Below are positions 38,952 to 45,366 of a stretch of 61,646 nucleotides of DNA, in pieces. Position 1 is the stretch's first letter. Each line of letters begins with the position of its first letter. The notes under the pieces were generated by a model, which saw only the letters and a program-made list of their open reading frames with translations, was not told the origin of the DNA and ran no database searches. The position numbers and the translations under genes were made by a program. Source of the stretch: Bdellovibrionales bacterium (GTDB taxonomy: Bacteria > Bdellovibrionota > Bdellovibrionia > Bdellovibrionales > UBA1609); assembly GCA_028283955.1 (NCBI GenBank), contig JANQSP010000022.1, positions 1-61,646 of the forward strand, written 5' to 3'.

Positions 38952-39434
38952 TTACCATGAACTTATGTGGCCATTGAATAACAGAACTCCAAAGGAATAG
39001 CATTTACAGTATGATCCAATGGGAGCTATATAAGGTAAGTGGCAGTAAAACCCACCACTTCTGCAAATATAACTCTGTGGAGCCGCAGGAACAGGAACAG
39101 GAACGGGAACGGGAACAGGTATAGGAACTATAATATCACCGTGGTGATGGTGATCATCGTAACCACAACCTCCATGCCCATGTCTTCTCCTGCATTCCTG
39201 GTCTTCATCTCCATGAGCCAACTGTATTTCTTCACCTCTTTCAAAATTTTCATTTTCTAAATCCAGTACAATACCCACCATTTCTTCCAAAGGAGGTAAG
39301 TCTTCGACACTTAAGTTATAAAGATCCACTGCAGTTGTTTCCGAGTGATCTTCAGGTAAATTGGCAAATGCAAAACAGGAAAGGGTCAGTGATAAAAAAA
39401 GTGATAAAAAAAGTGTAATGATTTTCATATTCAA
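38952..39434 (-). CDS. Small secreted His-, Pro-Val- and Cys-rich hypothetical protein
   Basis: Signal peptide ending AFA; acidic region; HGHGG and HHHH; (VP)n; C-terminal C-x6-C-x11-C-x-C. Confidence 0.7.
   Translation of the reverse strand: MNMKIITLFLSLFLSLTLSCFAFANLPEDHSETTAVDLYNLSVEDLPPLEEMVGIVLDLENENFERGEEIQLAHGDEDQECRRRHGHGGCGYDDHHHHGDIIVPIPVPVPVPVPVPAAPQSYICRSGGFYCHLPYIAPIGSYCKCYSFGVLLFNGHISSW
39088..39129. repeat. Hexamer tandem repeat (GGAACR)n encoding the Pro-Val linker
   Basis: ggaaca ggaaca ggaacg ggaacg ggaaca ggtata ggaact. Confidence 0.9.
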
Positions 39435-39624: not shown

Positions 39625-40701
39625 CTAAAGCCATTTTCTTTTTTTGAAGAGGAGGACCATACCTCCACTGACAAGAAAGATGAGCACCCATACTATCAGG
39701 TAGCCATACTTCCAGTTTAATTCAGGCATGAACTTAAAGTTCATACCATAAATACCTACGATAAAAGTAAGGGGAATAAAAATAGCTGCAAAGATAGTCA
39801 GGACTTTCATAATCTCGTTCATTTTTCTGTTTATCGTGTTTTGATAAAAATCCATAAGAGAAGTGGTCAGTTCATTATAATAATCAATCACTTCAATAAT
39901 TTGAATAGTGTGATCCAGAATATCTTTGAAGTAACGCAGATTTTTAGTTTCGATCCATGGGTGGTTGCTGATAATAATTTTGTTTAAAGCTTCCTTGACG
40001 GGGAAGGCGGTTTTTCTCAGGTATAAAAACTCGCCTTTTAAGGAAAGAATATCTACCGGATTTAATTTATTCAGATTGGCTGTCACACATGTTTCCAGCT
40101 CTTCAAAATAGTCTCCCATTTTTTCAAGTGTGATATAATATTGATCAATAAGTAAATCTATCAATGCGTAAAACAGATAATCCGCTTTTAGAGATCTGAT
40201 TCTCCATATTGATTTTCTAAGGCGCTCTTTTACCGGTTCGAAAATGTCATCTTTTGTATCATGGAAGGAAAGTACAAAATTCTGACCAAAGAAGATACTG
40301 GTCTGGGAAACTTTTATCTGCATTCTTCCTTCTTTTCTTTCTGTTGAAACATATTTTATAATGGAAAAAAGCATATTATCCAACTCTTCCACTTTTGGGC
40401 GGTGATCTGTATTCAGTACATCTTCCAGCCAAAGCCGGTGAATGCCAAATTGGTTTCCAATTTCTTCGATGACTTTTTTATCGGATAATCCCTGAAATTC
40501 AATCCAGGTAATTTGACTGCTGTCTTTTACGTGTTCAATGCATTTTTCAAAACTGGCTGAATGGGATTCAAAAAAGGAATCTTTGGTATAATTAATCAGA
40601 TTGATATGTATCTTTTCTTTATCCCCTTTTTCCCCAATATAGACGAGAGATCCGGGGTGGAGACCCAGCACCTTTGTTCGGGTTTTTAAAAATCGAGCCA
40701 T
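39625..40701 (-). CDS. corA: Magnesium/cobalt transporter CorA
   Basis: GLHPGSLVYIG, LWLEDVLNT, HRPKVE, PLTFIVGIYGMNFKFMPEL. Confidence 0.96.
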   Translation of the reverse strand: MARFLKTRTKVLGLHPGSLVYIGEKGDKEKIHINLINYTKDSFFESHSASFEKCIEHVKDSSQITWIEFQGLSDKKVIEEIGNQFGIHRLWLEDVLNTDHRPKVEELDNMLFSIIKYVSTERKEGRMQIKVSQTSIFFGQNFVLSFHDTKDDIFEPVKERLRKSIWRIRSLKADYLFYALIDLLIDQYYITLEKMGDYFEELETCVTANLNKLNPVDILSLKGEFLYLRKTAFPVKEALNKIIISNHPWIETKNLRYFKDILDHTIQIIEVIDYYNELTTSLMDFYQNTINRKMNEIMKVLTIFAAIFIPLTFIVGIYGMNFKFMPELNWKYGYLIVWVLIFLVSGGMVLLFKKRKWL

Positions 40702-40829: not shown

Positions 40830-42053
40830 TTACTTCAAGTAAACCAGTTTTTTGGTTTTTACTAAGTATTTTTCAAAGTGATCAAATGGAGTTGATACTT
40901 TTACATTTTTGTAATCAGGGATTATTAAGGATGTCTTTTTATCGTATAAACGGCTGGAGAATTCTAATATATCGTTGGAAGATACCTTATTATGAGGTCG
41001 TTTGAGTATCTTTATAAAATTTTTTGCATTTATAATAATAAATATATGCTGGTCTGTTATTTTTCGAATAAAACGTTTTAATTCGTATAGTTTATTAAAA
41101 TCAGATACTAATATGTATTGGTTCCTGTTTTTTTTGGAGGAAGAAGTATATTTTTTTAAGTAGTGGGACATATTCCTGTTTTTTAGATATTGGGTGGGGA
41201 TATTGACCAATGAAACAGGATCACTTTTTATTTTTTTTGTGTTGTTTATATAGGAAACAACTTTTTTTATATGGGAAGGTGTTAGTTTATCTGCAGTAGA
41301 GAATTGTTGAATCAGTATATGTTTTCCATATAAAGCGTCTGAAGGAAGAATAATTTTTCCTTTATTTTGAAATAATAGGGCTTCTGTTGATCGCTGATGA
41401 ATAAGTTCCAGATTTAATTTATGATGATTAAGGTTTTTAAAGATTTTTCCGGAACAGCGAAGAAAGTCAATATCAACACGGCTGGATTCAAAATTATCAA
41501 AAAGAGACTTTATGATATTTTTGTGATCCTTTTTTCCATAAAACGCGGAGTAAATTAAGTTCACTCCCAAAACACCCAGTATTTCATATTGTTGTAAACG
41601 TGTTTTATCCAGTAAATTTACGTGTAAGATTATCTCGTTATAAGGCGCTTTATATTCACTTTGAAAACGAATTCCCATCCATCCGTGATGGTAAGATGTA
41701 TTATTGGATTTTCCAACTGTACTGACAGCCACTGTGTCGGCAAAAGCAAAAAATTTTGTATTATGTCCTCTTTTTTTTTTGAGTCGTTTTTGAAGTAATG
41801 TGTATTCGTGTTCCAGCATTTTGGAAAGCCGGCTTTCAGAAACATACCTTCCCGATCCCCCATATATTTGATCACTAAAAGTCATATCATAAGCTGACAT
41901 GCTTTTTGCCACTGTTTTTGAAGCCTGTCCGGCCTTGAAGAAATGGTTTACCACCTCCTGGCCAGCGCCAATTTCGGCAAAGGTGCCGTAAATAGCAGGT
42001 GAGCTGTTTATTTTTCTGGCTTTTTCTATAGCTATTTTTTCGATATAAGGCAT
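40830..42053 (-). CDS. Conserved hypothetical protein (AIYGTFAEIGAGQEV family), possible CinA/PncC-fold N-terminal domain
   Basis: IYGTFAEIGAGQEV, AKSMSAYDMTFSDQIYG, RYVSESRL, FFAFADTV, HGWMGIRFQ, IILHV. I recognise this as a widespread family usually given unreliable labels. Confidence 0.6.
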   Translation of the reverse strand: MPYIEKIAIEKARKINSSPAIYGTFAEIGAGQEVVNHFFKAGQASKTVAKSMSAYDMTFSDQIYGGSGRYVSESRLSKMLEHEYTLLQKRLKKKRGHNTKFFAFADTVAVSTVGKSNNTSYHHGWMGIRFQSEYKAPYNEIILHVNLLDKTRLQQYEILGVLGVNLIYSAFYGKKDHKNIIKSLFDNFESSRVDIDFLRCSGKIFKNLNHHKLNLELIHQRSTEALLFQNKGKIILPSDALYGKHILIQQFSTADKLTPSHIKKVVSYINNTKKIKSDPVSLVNIPTQYLKNRNMSHYLKKYTSSSKKNRNQYILVSDFNKLYELKRFIRKITDQHIFIIINAKNFIKILKRPHNKVSSNDILEFSSRLYDKKTSLIIPDYKNVKVSTPFDHFEKYLVKTKKLVYLK

Positions 42054-42080: not shown

Positions 42081-42815
42081 TTATAAAAGGATTTTTCTTC
42101 CCTCTCTTACTTCAAGATTTTTTTTTGAAAGTGTGTAAGCAACGGGTACTCCTGTTGGAATTTCCACTTTTGTAATAGCTTCATTACTAAGCTGTTCTAT
42201 ATGTTTGATTAAAGCTCTTATACTGTTTCCATGAGCTGCGATGAGCACTGTTTTACCTTGCTGTAAGTAAGGATTAACAGTCGTCGTCCAAAACGGAAGA
42301 ACCCTTTGTTTTGTTTGTTCCAGGGACTCTCCGGTCGGGATAGTTGTTAGGTCTTTATATCGCCTGTCTATATCGTTCTTTTCTGAAGTAGGTAAGGGTG
42401 GAGGAGTGGTCTTGTAGTCTCTTCTCCAAAGTTGTACCTGTTTCTCTCCGTATTTTTCTATAGTTTCTTTTTTATTTAATCCGGTTAAATTACCATAGTG
42501 TCTTTCGTTCAATCTCCATGATTTTATGACAGGAATCCACATTTGGTCCATTTCATCTAAGATGATCCATAGAGTGCGAATGGCTCTTTTTAGAAAAGAT
42601 GTGCAGGCTAAGTCAAAATGAAGATGATTCTTCTTTAATGATTCAGCTGCTTTTTTTGCTTCTTTTTCACCTTGTGTACTTAGATCAATATCTTTCCAAC
42701 CAGTGAAGCGATTTTCCTGGTTCCATTGACTCTGTCCGTGCCGGATTAAAATTAAATTGTAAGAAGACATAATAGTAGCATATGATGAAATATCATTTAG
42801 GGGAATATGAATCAA
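42081..42815 (-). CDS. gpmA: 2,3-bisphosphoglycerate-dependent phosphoglycerate mutase
   Basis: [38 protein letters not shown]. Confidence 0.97.
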
Positions 42816-42876: not shown

Positions 42877-45366
42877 TTAAAATGAGCCAAAGGAGAGGTG
42901 AGGGACAATAGGAAATTCGTTCTTTTTTGGAGAAATTTTAAAGGCAATATATCCTGCAATAGGCCCTAATGGTGTTTTATATCTAAGACCAAATCCAGCG
43001 GAATGTCGATAGGGTTGTTCAAATTTTTTACCTGAAATCGTAACAATCCCCCCGTCGTAAAATAAAGTACCGGTAAAGTTTGTACTAATGGAGAAACGTA
43101 GCTCTGTTTTTAAAAGCATATAAAAAGATGCACGACTGGAAATTAATTCATTGGCATTATCAATAGGAAGTTCATTTTTGTCGGGGACTCTTTCACCATG
43201 AATCAAGCCATCAAAACCTCTTAGTGAGTTAACTCCACCGAGAATAAACGCTCTGCTGACAGGGAATCCCCCTGTATTGAGGCTGTTCATATTTGTAATA
43301 AAGCCGCCATGAATACTGTTAGCCCAAACCCAGTCATTGAAAAGAGGGCGAAAATCAAAGTGTTTGACTTCCATTTTTATAAATTTGATTTCCTCTGAAG
43401 AACTAATGATATAAAAAGGCCCTGCATATTCAATGGACATTTGTGATAAAAAACCATCAGAGGTGGATAAGATATCGTTTCTTTTATCAATGTTAAGAGA
43501 GATTCCCGTAGAAGCAATATTTAATATGTCACTATCACATAAAATAGCATTGGAATTAGAACTTCTACTGATTTGACAACTCCTGGTTTTTGTAAATTCC
43601 TCTCTTCCTTCCCAACTTAATATAGTCCATGTCAGGTTGATAAAATTGTTAATTGTTCTTTTTAAAAGAAAATTAATTTGTGTAGACTCTACGATGTCTG
43701 TTATACCCCCTTCCTTTGTTTGAAGATGTGAAAATATTTGATCTGAATTTGATAAGTTAATTTGACCATTAAATCCTGATTTAAACAGAAAAGGTTCTAC
43801 ATAACTGATAGAAGCCTGATGTTCCAAATATTCAGGTTCAGAAGAACTAATTTGTATATGTTTTGCAATATTGGATTGCAGTTTTACCCTTGAAAATATA
43901 TGTCTTCCCGTACCGAAAATATTTCTGTTTGAAAACTCGACGAAACCTCTGGCTGTTAAAGTCCTTTCCGTGTTCACACCTAAGGAAAAACGAATAGATC
44001 GGGGTTTTCTTTCTTCTACTTGAATAATCAATATCCTCTCTTCCGGGTTTTTGTTGTCATTTTTAGTTAATATATTGATAGATGAAAAAATACCTAAGTT
44101 TCTTAATTTATTGATTGAAAGTTCTATTTTTTTTGGTGTTAAAATATCTCCTTTTTTCAAAGGCAGACTGGTAATGATGAGATCTTTTTTTGTAATTTTA
44201 TTTCCTTTGACTAAAATATCAGAAATCCTGATCTTATTACTTTCTGTAATATTGATATGTAAAGTGGCCGTGGAGTCTTTCCTGTCGTATTGGACAATTT
44301 TTTCTGTGTTGTTTAACTTCACTTCAATGAACCCCGCATCCCTATATGTGGAAATCAGGTTTTTAATATCTTGTTCGAGAATATTGATATTTAAGCCTTT
44401 ATTTATTTTTATTTTCATTACATCCATTAGTTGTTGACTGGAAAAATGTTTATTTCCCGTGAAATGTATGGCCCTTACCCTGGTAAGGGGGCCTTCATTG
44501 AGAATAATATCAATAATGACCTTGTTATCTGAAGTATTTGTAATCCTGGCATGTGCTGTAGCTTTTAAATAACCTTCATTTTTTAATGAATTCACAAGGT
44601 TTTTTAATCCTTTTTGAATGTCTGTATTGTAAAATAATCCTTTTTTAATAAGAGAGCCGCTATAACGTCTGATGAATTTGATGTAATATCTATCTGATTT
44701 TGAAAACTGTCCGAATATTTTTATTTCTTTTACTTCTGTCTGTTGGCCCTCCTTAATTGTAATGAAAACATTTTTTATAAAATGTTTATGATCTATTTTA
44801 ATCTGATGTTTTAAATGGATATTTGCATAACCTTTTTTTAAGTAAGCTTCTTTTATGTATGCCAGGATTTTTCTGATGAGTTGAGTGTTGTTAAAATATT
44901 TTTTATAGTTCTGTTTAGGCAATAATGTGTATCTATCCAGGGATTGAGTCCCTTTTAAAATAAAACCATATTTATAAGGATTTGTTATTTCATAGGAAAT
45001 ATTGACTCTATTATTCGATAGATCAAATAATGGTCCTCTTACTTCCGGCAGAAGGATTTTTTTTTCTTTTAAAAGATAAAATATTTCATTATGGATTTTG
45101 TCGGATAATTTTTTTGAAAACTGCTGGTTTTTATATTTGGATAGTGTTTTTTTAATATCCTGTTTTAGCTTTTTATTTGTCGTTTTTATATTAATGTTTG
45201 CTATAATGTTATTTATTTTTTCAGATTTTACTGTTTGTGTTTTTTTGAAAGAGTCAGCTGATTTATCATCCTCAGTTTTTGGGTTTGTATTCCGGTTCGG
45301 GACAGGTGTTGAGTAAACTGCACAGTGTAATATTACGATGAAATATAGGATTTTTTTAAAAATCAA
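42877..45366 (-). CDS. Omp85-family outer-membrane protein with POTRA domains (TamA/BamA-like)
   Basis: Signal peptide; POTRA-like repeats (LNEGP, FTGNKHFS, VKGNKIT); barrel motifs LGGVNSLRGF, GFGLRYKTPLGPI; terminal Phe. Confidence 0.88.
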   Translation of the reverse strand: MIFKKILYFIVILHCAVYSTPVPNRNTNPKTEDDKSADSFKKTQTVKSEKINNIIANINIKTTNKKLKQDIKKTLSKYKNQQFSKKLSDKIHNEIFYLLKEKKILLPEVRGPLFDLSNNRVNISYEITNPYKYGFILKGTQSLDRYTLLPKQNYKKYFNNTQLIRKILAYIKEAYLKKGYANIHLKHQIKIDHKHFIKNVFITIKEGQQTEVKEIKIFGQFSKSDRYYIKFIRRYSGSLIKKGLFYNTDIQKGLKNLVNSLKNEGYLKATAHARITNTSDNKVIIDIILNEGPLTRVRAIHFTGNKHFSSQQLMDVMKIKINKGLNINILEQDIKNLISTYRDAGFIEVKLNNTEKIVQYDRKDSTATLHINITESNKIRISDILVKGNKITKKDLIITSLPLKKGDILTPKKIELSINKLRNLGIFSSINILTKNDNKNPEERILIIQVEERKPRSIRFSLGVNTERTLTARGFVEFSNRNIFGTGRHIFSRVKLQSNIAKHIQISSSEPEYLEHQASISYVEPFLFKSGFNGQINLSNSDQIFSHLQTKEGGITDIVESTQINFLLKRTINNFINLTWTILSWEGREEFTKTRSCQISRSSNSNAILCDSDILNIASTGISLNIDKRNDILSTSDGFLSQMSIEYAGPFYIISSSEEIKFIKMEVKHFDFRPLFNDWVWANSIHGGFITNMNSLNTGGFPVSRAFILGGVNSLRGFDGLIHGERVPDKNELPIDNANELISSRASFYMLLKTELRFSISTNFTGTLFYDGGIVTISGKKFEQPYRHSAGFGLRYKTPLGPIAGYIAFKISPKKNEFPIVPHLSFGSF

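Follow-up and report, generated by a model that had tools for sequence, protein, structure and literature searches.

Predicted PncC-like and NadD-like folds without either catalytic signature in a widespread uncharacterised bacterial protein family

Background

The window analysed here is the whole of a 61,646-nucleotide stretch of DNA from a Bdellovibrionales bacterium (contig JANQSP010000022.1), and the gene in question is an intact open reading frame (ORF) on its minus strand at 40830..42053, which the ORF list and its translation give as 407 amino acids plus a stop codon. The question raised by this locus is what kind of protein the ORF encodes. The database names of its relatives conflict, being TonB-dependent receptor, nicotinate-nucleotide adenylyltransferase, nicotinamide mononucleotide adenylyltransferase and hypothetical protein, and three of these conflicting names are found on one Dyadobacter jejuensis protein. 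An earlier note on this DNA had named the adenylyltransferase and receptor labels, which are indeed present on the records of relatives, and had proposed that a PncC/CinA fold is hidden in the protein. In the ESM Atlas the matching clusters all lay below 0.9 and were either unnamed or labelled 'TonB-dependent receptor', and no paper on the family came up in the literature searches. PncC and NadD carry out two consecutive steps, from nicotinamide mononucleotide (NMN) to nicotinate mononucleotide (NaMN) and from NaMN to nicotinate adenine dinucleotide (NaAD), on the way to nicotinamide adenine dinucleotide (NAD).

The analysis revealed that the gene product is a cytoplasmic member of a widespread and as yet uncharacterised protein family, in which a PncC-fold domain is followed by a NadD-fold domain. 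The catalytic signatures of both enzymes are absent, canonical paralogues are present in the same genome, the N-terminal domain is strongly constrained and the C-terminal domain of the window protein is decaying. The protein is most likely a remodelled nucleotide-binding protein. The assignment corrects the annotation of a family with contradictory names, for which Pfam and NCBIfam have no model although it is encoded in at least 582 species of the species-representative genome collection and forms 1657 clusters at 50% identity in an exhaustive phmmer search (267 of these with E below 1e-30). The word-indexed search gave more than 7380 homologues of the window protein.

Structure prediction and fold comparison

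The AlphaFold2 model of the window protein, built from a 34-sequence alignment, had a predicted local distance difference test score (pLDDT) of 86.3 and a predicted template modelling score (pTM) of 0.86. The Foldseek comparison with the PDB placed CinA/PncC structures at the top (2a9s_B, E 5.5e-6, target TM 0.66) and NadD structures next, at E of about 4e-3. The VIA fold search, which is independent of Foldseek, superposed model residues 1-172 on 2a9s_B with a Z of 16.1 and a root mean square deviation (rmsd) of 2.8 Å over 151 of its 165 residues. Other PncC/CinA matches were 6l19 (Z 15.4), 6mr3 (14.5) and the PncC domain of Thermus thermophilus CinA (4ct8, 14.4), while HcgF reached 10.1 and unrelated folds at most 6.5. 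The hidden fold proposed earlier is thereby borne out in the model, with CinA_C at Z 14.4-16.1 against at most 6.5 for unrelated folds. Over model residues 242-407 the same search gave a block of NadD/NMNAT structures at Z 8-10 (4wso 10.1, 1k4k 9.7, 1yul 9.6).

A second, independent model was obtained for the full-length relative P0093 (465 amino acids) from a 79-sequence alignment, with pLDDT 95.8 and pTM 0.93. Two complete domains were observed in it, one PncC-like and one NadD/NMNAT-like. The first matched PncC with a Z of 16.5 over 153 of 164 residues, and the second matched Staphylococcus aureus NadD (2h29) with a Z of 16.3 over 175 of 188 residues. The NadD/NMNAT structures lay in the range Z 14-16.3 for this second domain, and weaker matches were phosphopantetheine adenylyltransferase (PPAT) at 10.9, NadM at 9.8 and glycerol-3-phosphate cytidylyltransferase at 7.1. 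The NadD-like nature that the earlier note had given to the C-terminal half is thus found in both predictions, at a Z of about 10 in the window protein and 16.3 in the full-length relative.

The predictions support a CinA-like alpha/beta fold for the N-terminal domain and, for the C-terminal domain, a Rossmann-type nucleotidyltransferase fold that superposes on NadD. By VIA, Foldseek and conservation the N-terminal PncC/CinA_C-fold domain covers residues 1-176 (41526..42053, minus strand, as for all features of this ORF). The middle segment, residues 177-241 (41331..41525), consists of helix, strand, helix and short strands according to DSSP, and the fold matches barely cover it. The NadD-like Rossmann-type domain, assigned by VIA, covers residues 242-407 (40833..41330); it is degenerate and has no C-terminal subdomain. 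The ORF list, the homologues and the AlphaFold2 model together define the whole ORF (40830..42053) as an uncharacterised member of a PncC-like/NadD-like two-domain family.

The fold also bears on the name TonB-dependent outer-membrane receptor, a reading of practically negligible probability for which the label on relatives is the only argument. It is refuted by the predicted fold, a two-domain alpha/beta model that matches cytoplasmic enzymes and not a beta-barrel. Further, no Plug (PF07715) or TonB_dep_Rec (PF00593) match was found even at E up to 1, and the N-terminus of the protein is hydrophilic, with no hydrophobic signal sequence. The library scans returned no Pfam or NCBIfam family for the window protein (Pfam at E up to 1) and no PADLOC or PHROG model at E up to 0.01, the last two likewise for the full-length relative. 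The Pfam scan of five relatives gave no family above the cut-off. Among PDB sequences, the phmmer and profile searches gave no significant match, the best being PPAT with E 0.17.

Comparison of the N-terminal domain with PncC

The catalytic residues of PncC have been described. In the Agrobacterium tumefaciens enzyme S31 and K63 are essential, the mutants S31A and K63A being inactive, C32 and G106 form the oxyanion hole, and G46, S48, Y58 and R145 bind phosphate (PMC5384747); K301 acts as the key base of the T. thermophilus enzyme (PMC4246079). The strings on which the earlier note built its parallel to PncC (TFAEIGAG, AGQASKTV, SMSAYD, DQIYG and RYVSESRLSKML) are all present in the translation of the ORF. 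A forced global profile alignment of the N-terminal domain against 31 CinA_C domains from the phylum reproduced its pairings, namely E27-E32, I28-S33, S45-S50, Y55-Y60, S60-K65 and T107-T107, with the residue of the genome's own PncC given second in each pair. The statistical side of the parallel did not hold. The global alignment score had a z of 1.2 against 200 column shuffles, and hhalign, run with a 72-sequence family alignment against the same 31 domains, gave an E of 0.14. Its global mode returned only trivial end overlap, as did semi-global profile alignment, and profile-profile comparison of the family with a single PncC or NadD was not significant. The Pfam CinA model (PF02464) does not match the window protein, while the genome's own PncC scores 154.8 bits. 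The sequence parallel is no better than chance, and the significance of the relationship comes from the predicted structure alone. The residue equivalences given below are positional, taken from the collinear, non-significant alignment and the order of secondary structure, and are good to about one residue.

By forced alignment and conservation, the block TFAEIGAGQ (residues 24-32, 41958..41984) is the putative counterpart of PncC block P-I (ESCTGG), and the block SAYDMTFSDQIYG (residues 53-65, 41859..41897) that of block P-III. Ile28 stands at the position of the catalytic Ser, in agreement with the replacement proposed earlier, and the family-conserved stretch A26 E27 I28 G29 A30 G31 Q32 contains no Ser, Thr or Cys. 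In the second block the invariant Tyr55 aligns with the phosphate-binding Tyr of PncC, the invariant Ser60 occupies the position of the catalytic Lys, and residues 56-65 contain no Lys. Since the first block has no Ser, Thr or Cys and the second no Lys, the Ser/Lys dyad is absent whatever the exact register, and the family protein, as far as its sequence goes, is not PncC. Both blocks are conserved family-wide as A-E-I-G-A-G-Q-E and Y-D-M-x-x-S-D-x-I-Y-G, at 85% or more across phyla.

The comparison with the known PncC/CinA_C group (PF02464; 2A9S of A. tumefaciens, 4CT8 of T. thermophilus) thus shows both likeness and difference. The alpha/beta fold is predicted to be the same (Z 14.4-16.5, rmsd 2.2-3.0, about 150 residues), the conserved blocks are collinear, and the P-I Glu, the P-III Tyr and the TG-block Thr are kept by position. 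In the window protein the positional counterparts that are kept are E27 for the P-I Glu, G42 and S45 for the Gly/Ser loop, Y55 for the Tyr and T107 for the Thr, and in the forced, non-significant alignment G42/S45 and Y55 pair with phosphate-binding residues of PncC. However, the family has no Pfam match and no significant profile-profile similarity to this group, Ser and Lys have become Ile and Ser, and a middle segment and a NadD-like domain always follow. The invariant polar residues are also a different set; the new near-invariant ones are K50, D56, S60, D61, R69, R75, E83, H144 and Q155.

Comparison of the C-terminal domain with NadD and its decay

The C-terminal domain of full-length members spans the entire NadD chain (NadD/NMNAT, PF01467; 2H29 of S. 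aureus, 1K4K of Escherichia coli), and collinear remnants of G-x-F-x-P and I-S-S-x-x-I-R...L-V-P..V..Y-I are found in the family. The catalytic motifs are altered. Where NadD has G-x-F-x-P-x-H-x-G-H, the family consensus is R-G-x-F-R-P-x-T-x-x-(N/H)-x-D; the first His of HxGH is replaced by Thr in 65 of 79 family sequences, and the second position is Asn in 32 and His in 27 of the 79. At the ISSTxIR site the family reads I-x-S-x-x-V followed mostly by Leu (38/79) in place of the Arg, which is found in 11 sequences, with His in 4. In the window protein the column composition of the alignment places the lost HxGH-type motif at residues 250-261 (QFSTADKLTPSH, 41271..41306), where Q-F-S-T-A-D-K-L-T-P-S-H is read. 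The protein ends about 55 residues before the family C-terminus, so that the ISSTxIR site and the helical subdomain are missing, and with motif and whole C-terminal subdomain lost its Z against NadD is only about 10. The earlier note had seen no clear HxGH in this half; motif and C-terminal tail are in fact both absent.

The relationship of the domain to NadD at the level of sequence is faint. PF01467 does not match the window protein, and the best-scoring relative, P0114, had an E of 0.069, short of the cut-off. Weak collinear matches of the family to PPAT and NadD sequences were found which, while not significant, support remote homology. With HxGH and ISSTxIR altered in the family and absent in the window protein, the motifs indicate that the family protein is not a canonical NadD.

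The two halves of the window protein differ sharply in conservation. Pairwise identity within the broad family averages 0.51 in the N-terminal domain, 0.34 in the middle segment and 0.31 in the C-terminal domain, and the corresponding values for the window protein against the family are 0.52, 0.29 and 0.18. Every family-conserved position up to residue 228 is kept in the window protein, while in the C-terminal domain (242-407) seven of nine are changed (R250Q, P253T, E284N, R301K, G361D, P380D and L393F). The eroded look of the C-terminal half remarked upon earlier is therefore quantified, at 18% identity to the family against a family mean of 31%. The window genome is small (1.35 Mb, 91% complete). 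Genomes of 2.1-3.1 Mb in the same GTDB family carry full-length copies covering model positions 4-465, whereas the window copy stops at position 420 of 466. The 128 bp after its stop codon showed no evident remnant of the lost tail when inspected by eye only. A clade of forms of about 400 amino acids has the same truncation with 78% identity in the N-terminal domain, and some relatives of about 360 amino acids have lost more. The NadD-like half is decaying in this reduced-genome Bdellovibrionota lineage, and the PncC-like half is as conserved as anywhere.

Erosion and truncation relative to copies in larger genomes, together with the small genome size, might be taken to mean that the whole gene is a functionless relic on its way to a pseudogene. 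This is very improbable, as the frame is intact, the N-terminal domain has lost none of the family-conserved positions and shares 52% identity with members of other phyla, the predicted fold is a confident one, and the whole clade of about 400-amino-acid forms keeps the truncated architecture at the N-domain identity given above. The lineage resembles a natural domain-deletion experiment. The N-terminal domain is kept while the NadD-like domain decays, which points to the former as the part to study.

Two observations were made on other copies. One relative's copy (G024:C1:941062-942447, minus strand) carries an in-frame TAA. In another genome (G017, 97% complete) the N-terminal domain alone, model positions 7-248, is encoded in a 363-amino-acid frame (G017:C83:2015-2743, minus strand), and no PF02464 match was found in that genome.

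NAD metabolism genes of the genome

The genome encodes a canonical PncC of 172 amino acids beside recA, with the motif A-E-S-C-T-G-G, to which the PF02464 score given above belongs. A canonical NadD with H-L-G-H, fused to RsfS, is also encoded, as are CoaD (GSFDPITKGH) and a glutamine-dependent NadE. The NadD-RsfS fusion is one ORF of 357 amino acids on contig C62 of the same genome (L003:910-1980, minus strand), with PF01467 at residues 19-207 and PF02410 at 251-347; NadD and RsfS are usually separate neighbouring genes. The 91%-complete, 1.35-Mb assembly yielded neither nicotinate phosphoribosyltransferase (NAPRTase)/NAMPT (PF04095) nor quinolinate phosphoribosyltransferase (QRPTase, PF01729), which suggests that the organism depends on imported NMN or a related precursor. 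The visible NAD route runs from NMN by way of NaMN and NaAD to NAD and uses the canonical enzymes. As canonical PncC, NadD and NadE are present in the genome, the family protein is an addition and not a replacement.

These genes bear directly on the suggestion that the protein is a working bifunctional NAD-salvage enzyme, whose N-terminal domain would convert NMN to NaMN and whose C-terminal domain would convert NaMN to NaAD, feeding NadE. The two folds are exactly those of PncC and NadD, relatives are labelled as NaMN or NMN adenylyltransferase in the databases, and the genome seems to rely on NMN salvage, with NadE present and the two phosphoribosyltransferases not found in the incomplete assembly. 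Nevertheless the suggestion is improbable. The essential Ser/Lys of PncC is Ile/Ser family-wide, and loss of either residue inactivates the enzyme (S31A, K63A; PMC5384747). The HxGH motif is T-x-x-N/H in the family and absent in the window protein, where the ISSTxIR subdomain is absent too. The canonical enzymes for both steps are encoded elsewhere in the same genome, and PncC co-occurs with the family protein in 15 of the 16 genomes of the phylum sample that carry the family.

A comparable arrangement is known from bifunctional CinA, in which a COG1058 ADP-ribose pyrophosphatase is fused to PncC with a small domain between them (PMC4246079). In both cases two pyridine-nucleotide-recycling domains are joined in one polypeptide with a small domain between. 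The partner in the present family is NadD-like and not COG1058/MocF, however, it lies C-terminal and not N-terminal to the PncC-like domain, and neither domain of the family keeps canonical catalytic residues.

Proposed role and alternatives

The family was formed by the joining of a PncC/CinA_C-fold domain to a NadD/NMNAT-fold domain, and in the proposed mechanism the PncC-like domain would be the working part. Its ancestral cleft may still hold a phosphoribosyl nucleotide, probably a pyridine nucleotide, because the counterparts of the phosphate-binding Gly/Ser loop, Tyr and Thr are kept. The new polar set listed above, together with E27, would sense the ligand or catalyse a reaction other than Ser/Lys amide hydrolysis. 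Because conservation in the protein is highest in the former active-site blocks, there is a slight lean towards a remodelled enzyme over an inert sensor. The earlier note had offered two candidate functions, a nucleotide-binding pseudoenzyme or an NAD-salvage enzyme with new chemistry; bearing on them are the loss of canonical catalytic residues from both domains, the canonical PncC, NadD and NadE kept in the genome, and the very strong conservation of the PncC-like domain. A PncC-fold and NadD-fold protein that is neither enzyme, with a working PncC-like part and such a nucleotide in the ancestral cleft, is considered a fairly probable description. The more specific proposal, that the family is an unrecognised player in pyridine-nucleotide biology which arose by PncC-NadD gene fusion, with both parent active sites rewired, and that an NAD-related mononucleotide is either sensed in the remodelled PncC-like pocket or converted there by new chemistry, is a tentative one and has somewhat less than an even chance.

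PncC-fold proteins that are not NMN deamidases are already known. E. coli YdeJ and YfaY are inactive CinA paralogues with the PncC fold which do not deamidate NMN (PMC3855486), and HcgF is a further case of the fold without this activity; 5kol and 3wva are among the fold matches. YdeJ and YfaY, unlike the present family, are still recognised by PF02464, and HcgF, an archaeal protein of cofactor biosynthesis, consists of one domain only. The conserved motifs of the family and a NadD-like domain are lacking in all three.

HcgF also exemplifies the serious alternative that the ligand is unrelated to NAD. The ligand could be, as for HcgF, another cofactor intermediate linked to a nucleotide, or else a macromolecule, and ancestry would then be uninformative on function. 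HcgF shares the fold (Z 10.1-10.3), the neighbourhoods of 80 loci contain no NAD-salvage genes, and a conserved partner could explain why many surface-type polar residues are so strongly conserved. A histidine phosphotransfer (Hpt) fusion in one variant also favours this alternative. On the other hand, the folds of the two domains indicate one and the same pathway, and NadD/NMNAT structures are matched specifically (Z 14-16.3, compared with 10.9 for PPAT and 7 for the cytidylyltransferase). NAD(P)-dependent dehydrogenases, moreover, are the only recognisable large fusion partners. Taken with these points, an NAD-unrelated ligand is rather unlikely.

The gene neighbourhood check proposed in the earlier note was carried out on these 80 loci with their neighbours clustered. 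It showed synteny at the level of clades only (GpmA, acyl-CoA ligase, DUF502, TPR/BatD and SppA); no partner is conserved across phyla in the 80 loci, the best being a generic ABC ATPase in 10 of them. Longer fused forms of the protein are rare and form five clusters, three of which join a complete family protein to an NAD(P)-dependent dehydrogenase. In these independent fusions (P0273, P0274 and P0275; metagenomic proteins of 785-824 amino acids) the dehydrogenases belong to two unrelated families and lie in opposite orientations. In one type a D-2-hydroxyacid/phosphoglycerate dehydrogenase-like domain (2-Hacid_dh) is N-terminal, in a cluster of 40 members, and in the other a Zn-ADH/quinone-oxidoreductase-like domain (ADH_N/ADH_zinc_N) is C-terminal. 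In addition, a single variant, P0242 (616 amino acids), ends in an Hpt domain (PF01627, E 1.2e-7). The fusions are weak hints that fit a link to NAD(P)(H) and possibly one to signalling.

Several observations weigh against the reading as a remodelled pyridine-nucleotide-binding protein. The link between the N-terminal domain and CinA_C has no sequence-level significance, and the residue equivalences are positional. The broad family does not conserve R152, the counterpart of the phosphate-binding Arg of PncC. Nor does likeness of fold prove that the ligand is the same, as HcgF, with this fold (Z 10.1), binds a guanylyl-pyridinol. No conserved NAD-salvage neighbour was found in the 80 loci, which are heterogeneous, the dehydrogenase fusions are rare (three of five long clusters), and the Hpt variant hints at signalling more than catalysis.

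The remodelled-protein reading offers biochemists a short list of ligands, namely NMN, NaMN, NaAD, NAD(P)(H), ADP-ribose and ATP. If the PncC-like domain is a new enzyme or sensor, a step or control point would be added to bacterial NAD metabolism, and the family would clearly illustrate the fusion and later repurposing of enzymes for two consecutive steps of a pathway. A first function would also be assigned to a protein that is conserved across several phyla, with hundreds of species in Bacteroidota, Verrucomicrobiota, Bdellovibrionota, Acidobacteriota and others.

Distribution of the family

The species that encode the family fall in about eight phyla, which include Bdellovibrionota, Bacteroidota, Verrucomicrobiota, Acidobacteriota, Nitrospirota, NC10, Spirochaetota and Fibrobacterota. 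In Bacteroidota it is carried by the orders Cytophagales, Sphingobacteriales and Chitinophagales. In the phylum of the window, 16 of 61 sampled genomes have it; these include all four genomes sampled from the window's own GTDB family, all three from the rest of the order and all seven from one other family, and in most other families of the 61-genome sample it was not found.

Gene locus and neighbouring genes

Upstream of the family gene, after a gap of 27 nt, lies a gene for a GpmA-type phosphoglycerate mutase (42081..42815), which is preceded by bamA (42877..45366). The corA gene (39625..40701) follows downstream after a gap of 128 nt, and the four genes share the minus strand. Promoter-like and terminator-like sites were scanned for around the family gene and occur there at no more than chance level, and co-transcription with gpmA is plausible. 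In Bdellovibrio-type loci (L036, L039, L041, L044 and L064) a gene for a DUF502 membrane protein of about 203 amino acids stands directly upstream, on the same strand as the family gene and with a gap of a few bases; this synteny is clade-specific.

Between corA and ddl of the window lies a further ORF of 160 amino acids (38952-39434, minus strand) for which no Pfam match was found. The N-terminal segment of its product is hydrophobic and signal-like, and a (PV)n repeat and a stretch rich in His (HGHGGCGYDDHHHHGD) are also present; it may encode a small secreted metal-binding protein beside the Mg/Co transporter gene.

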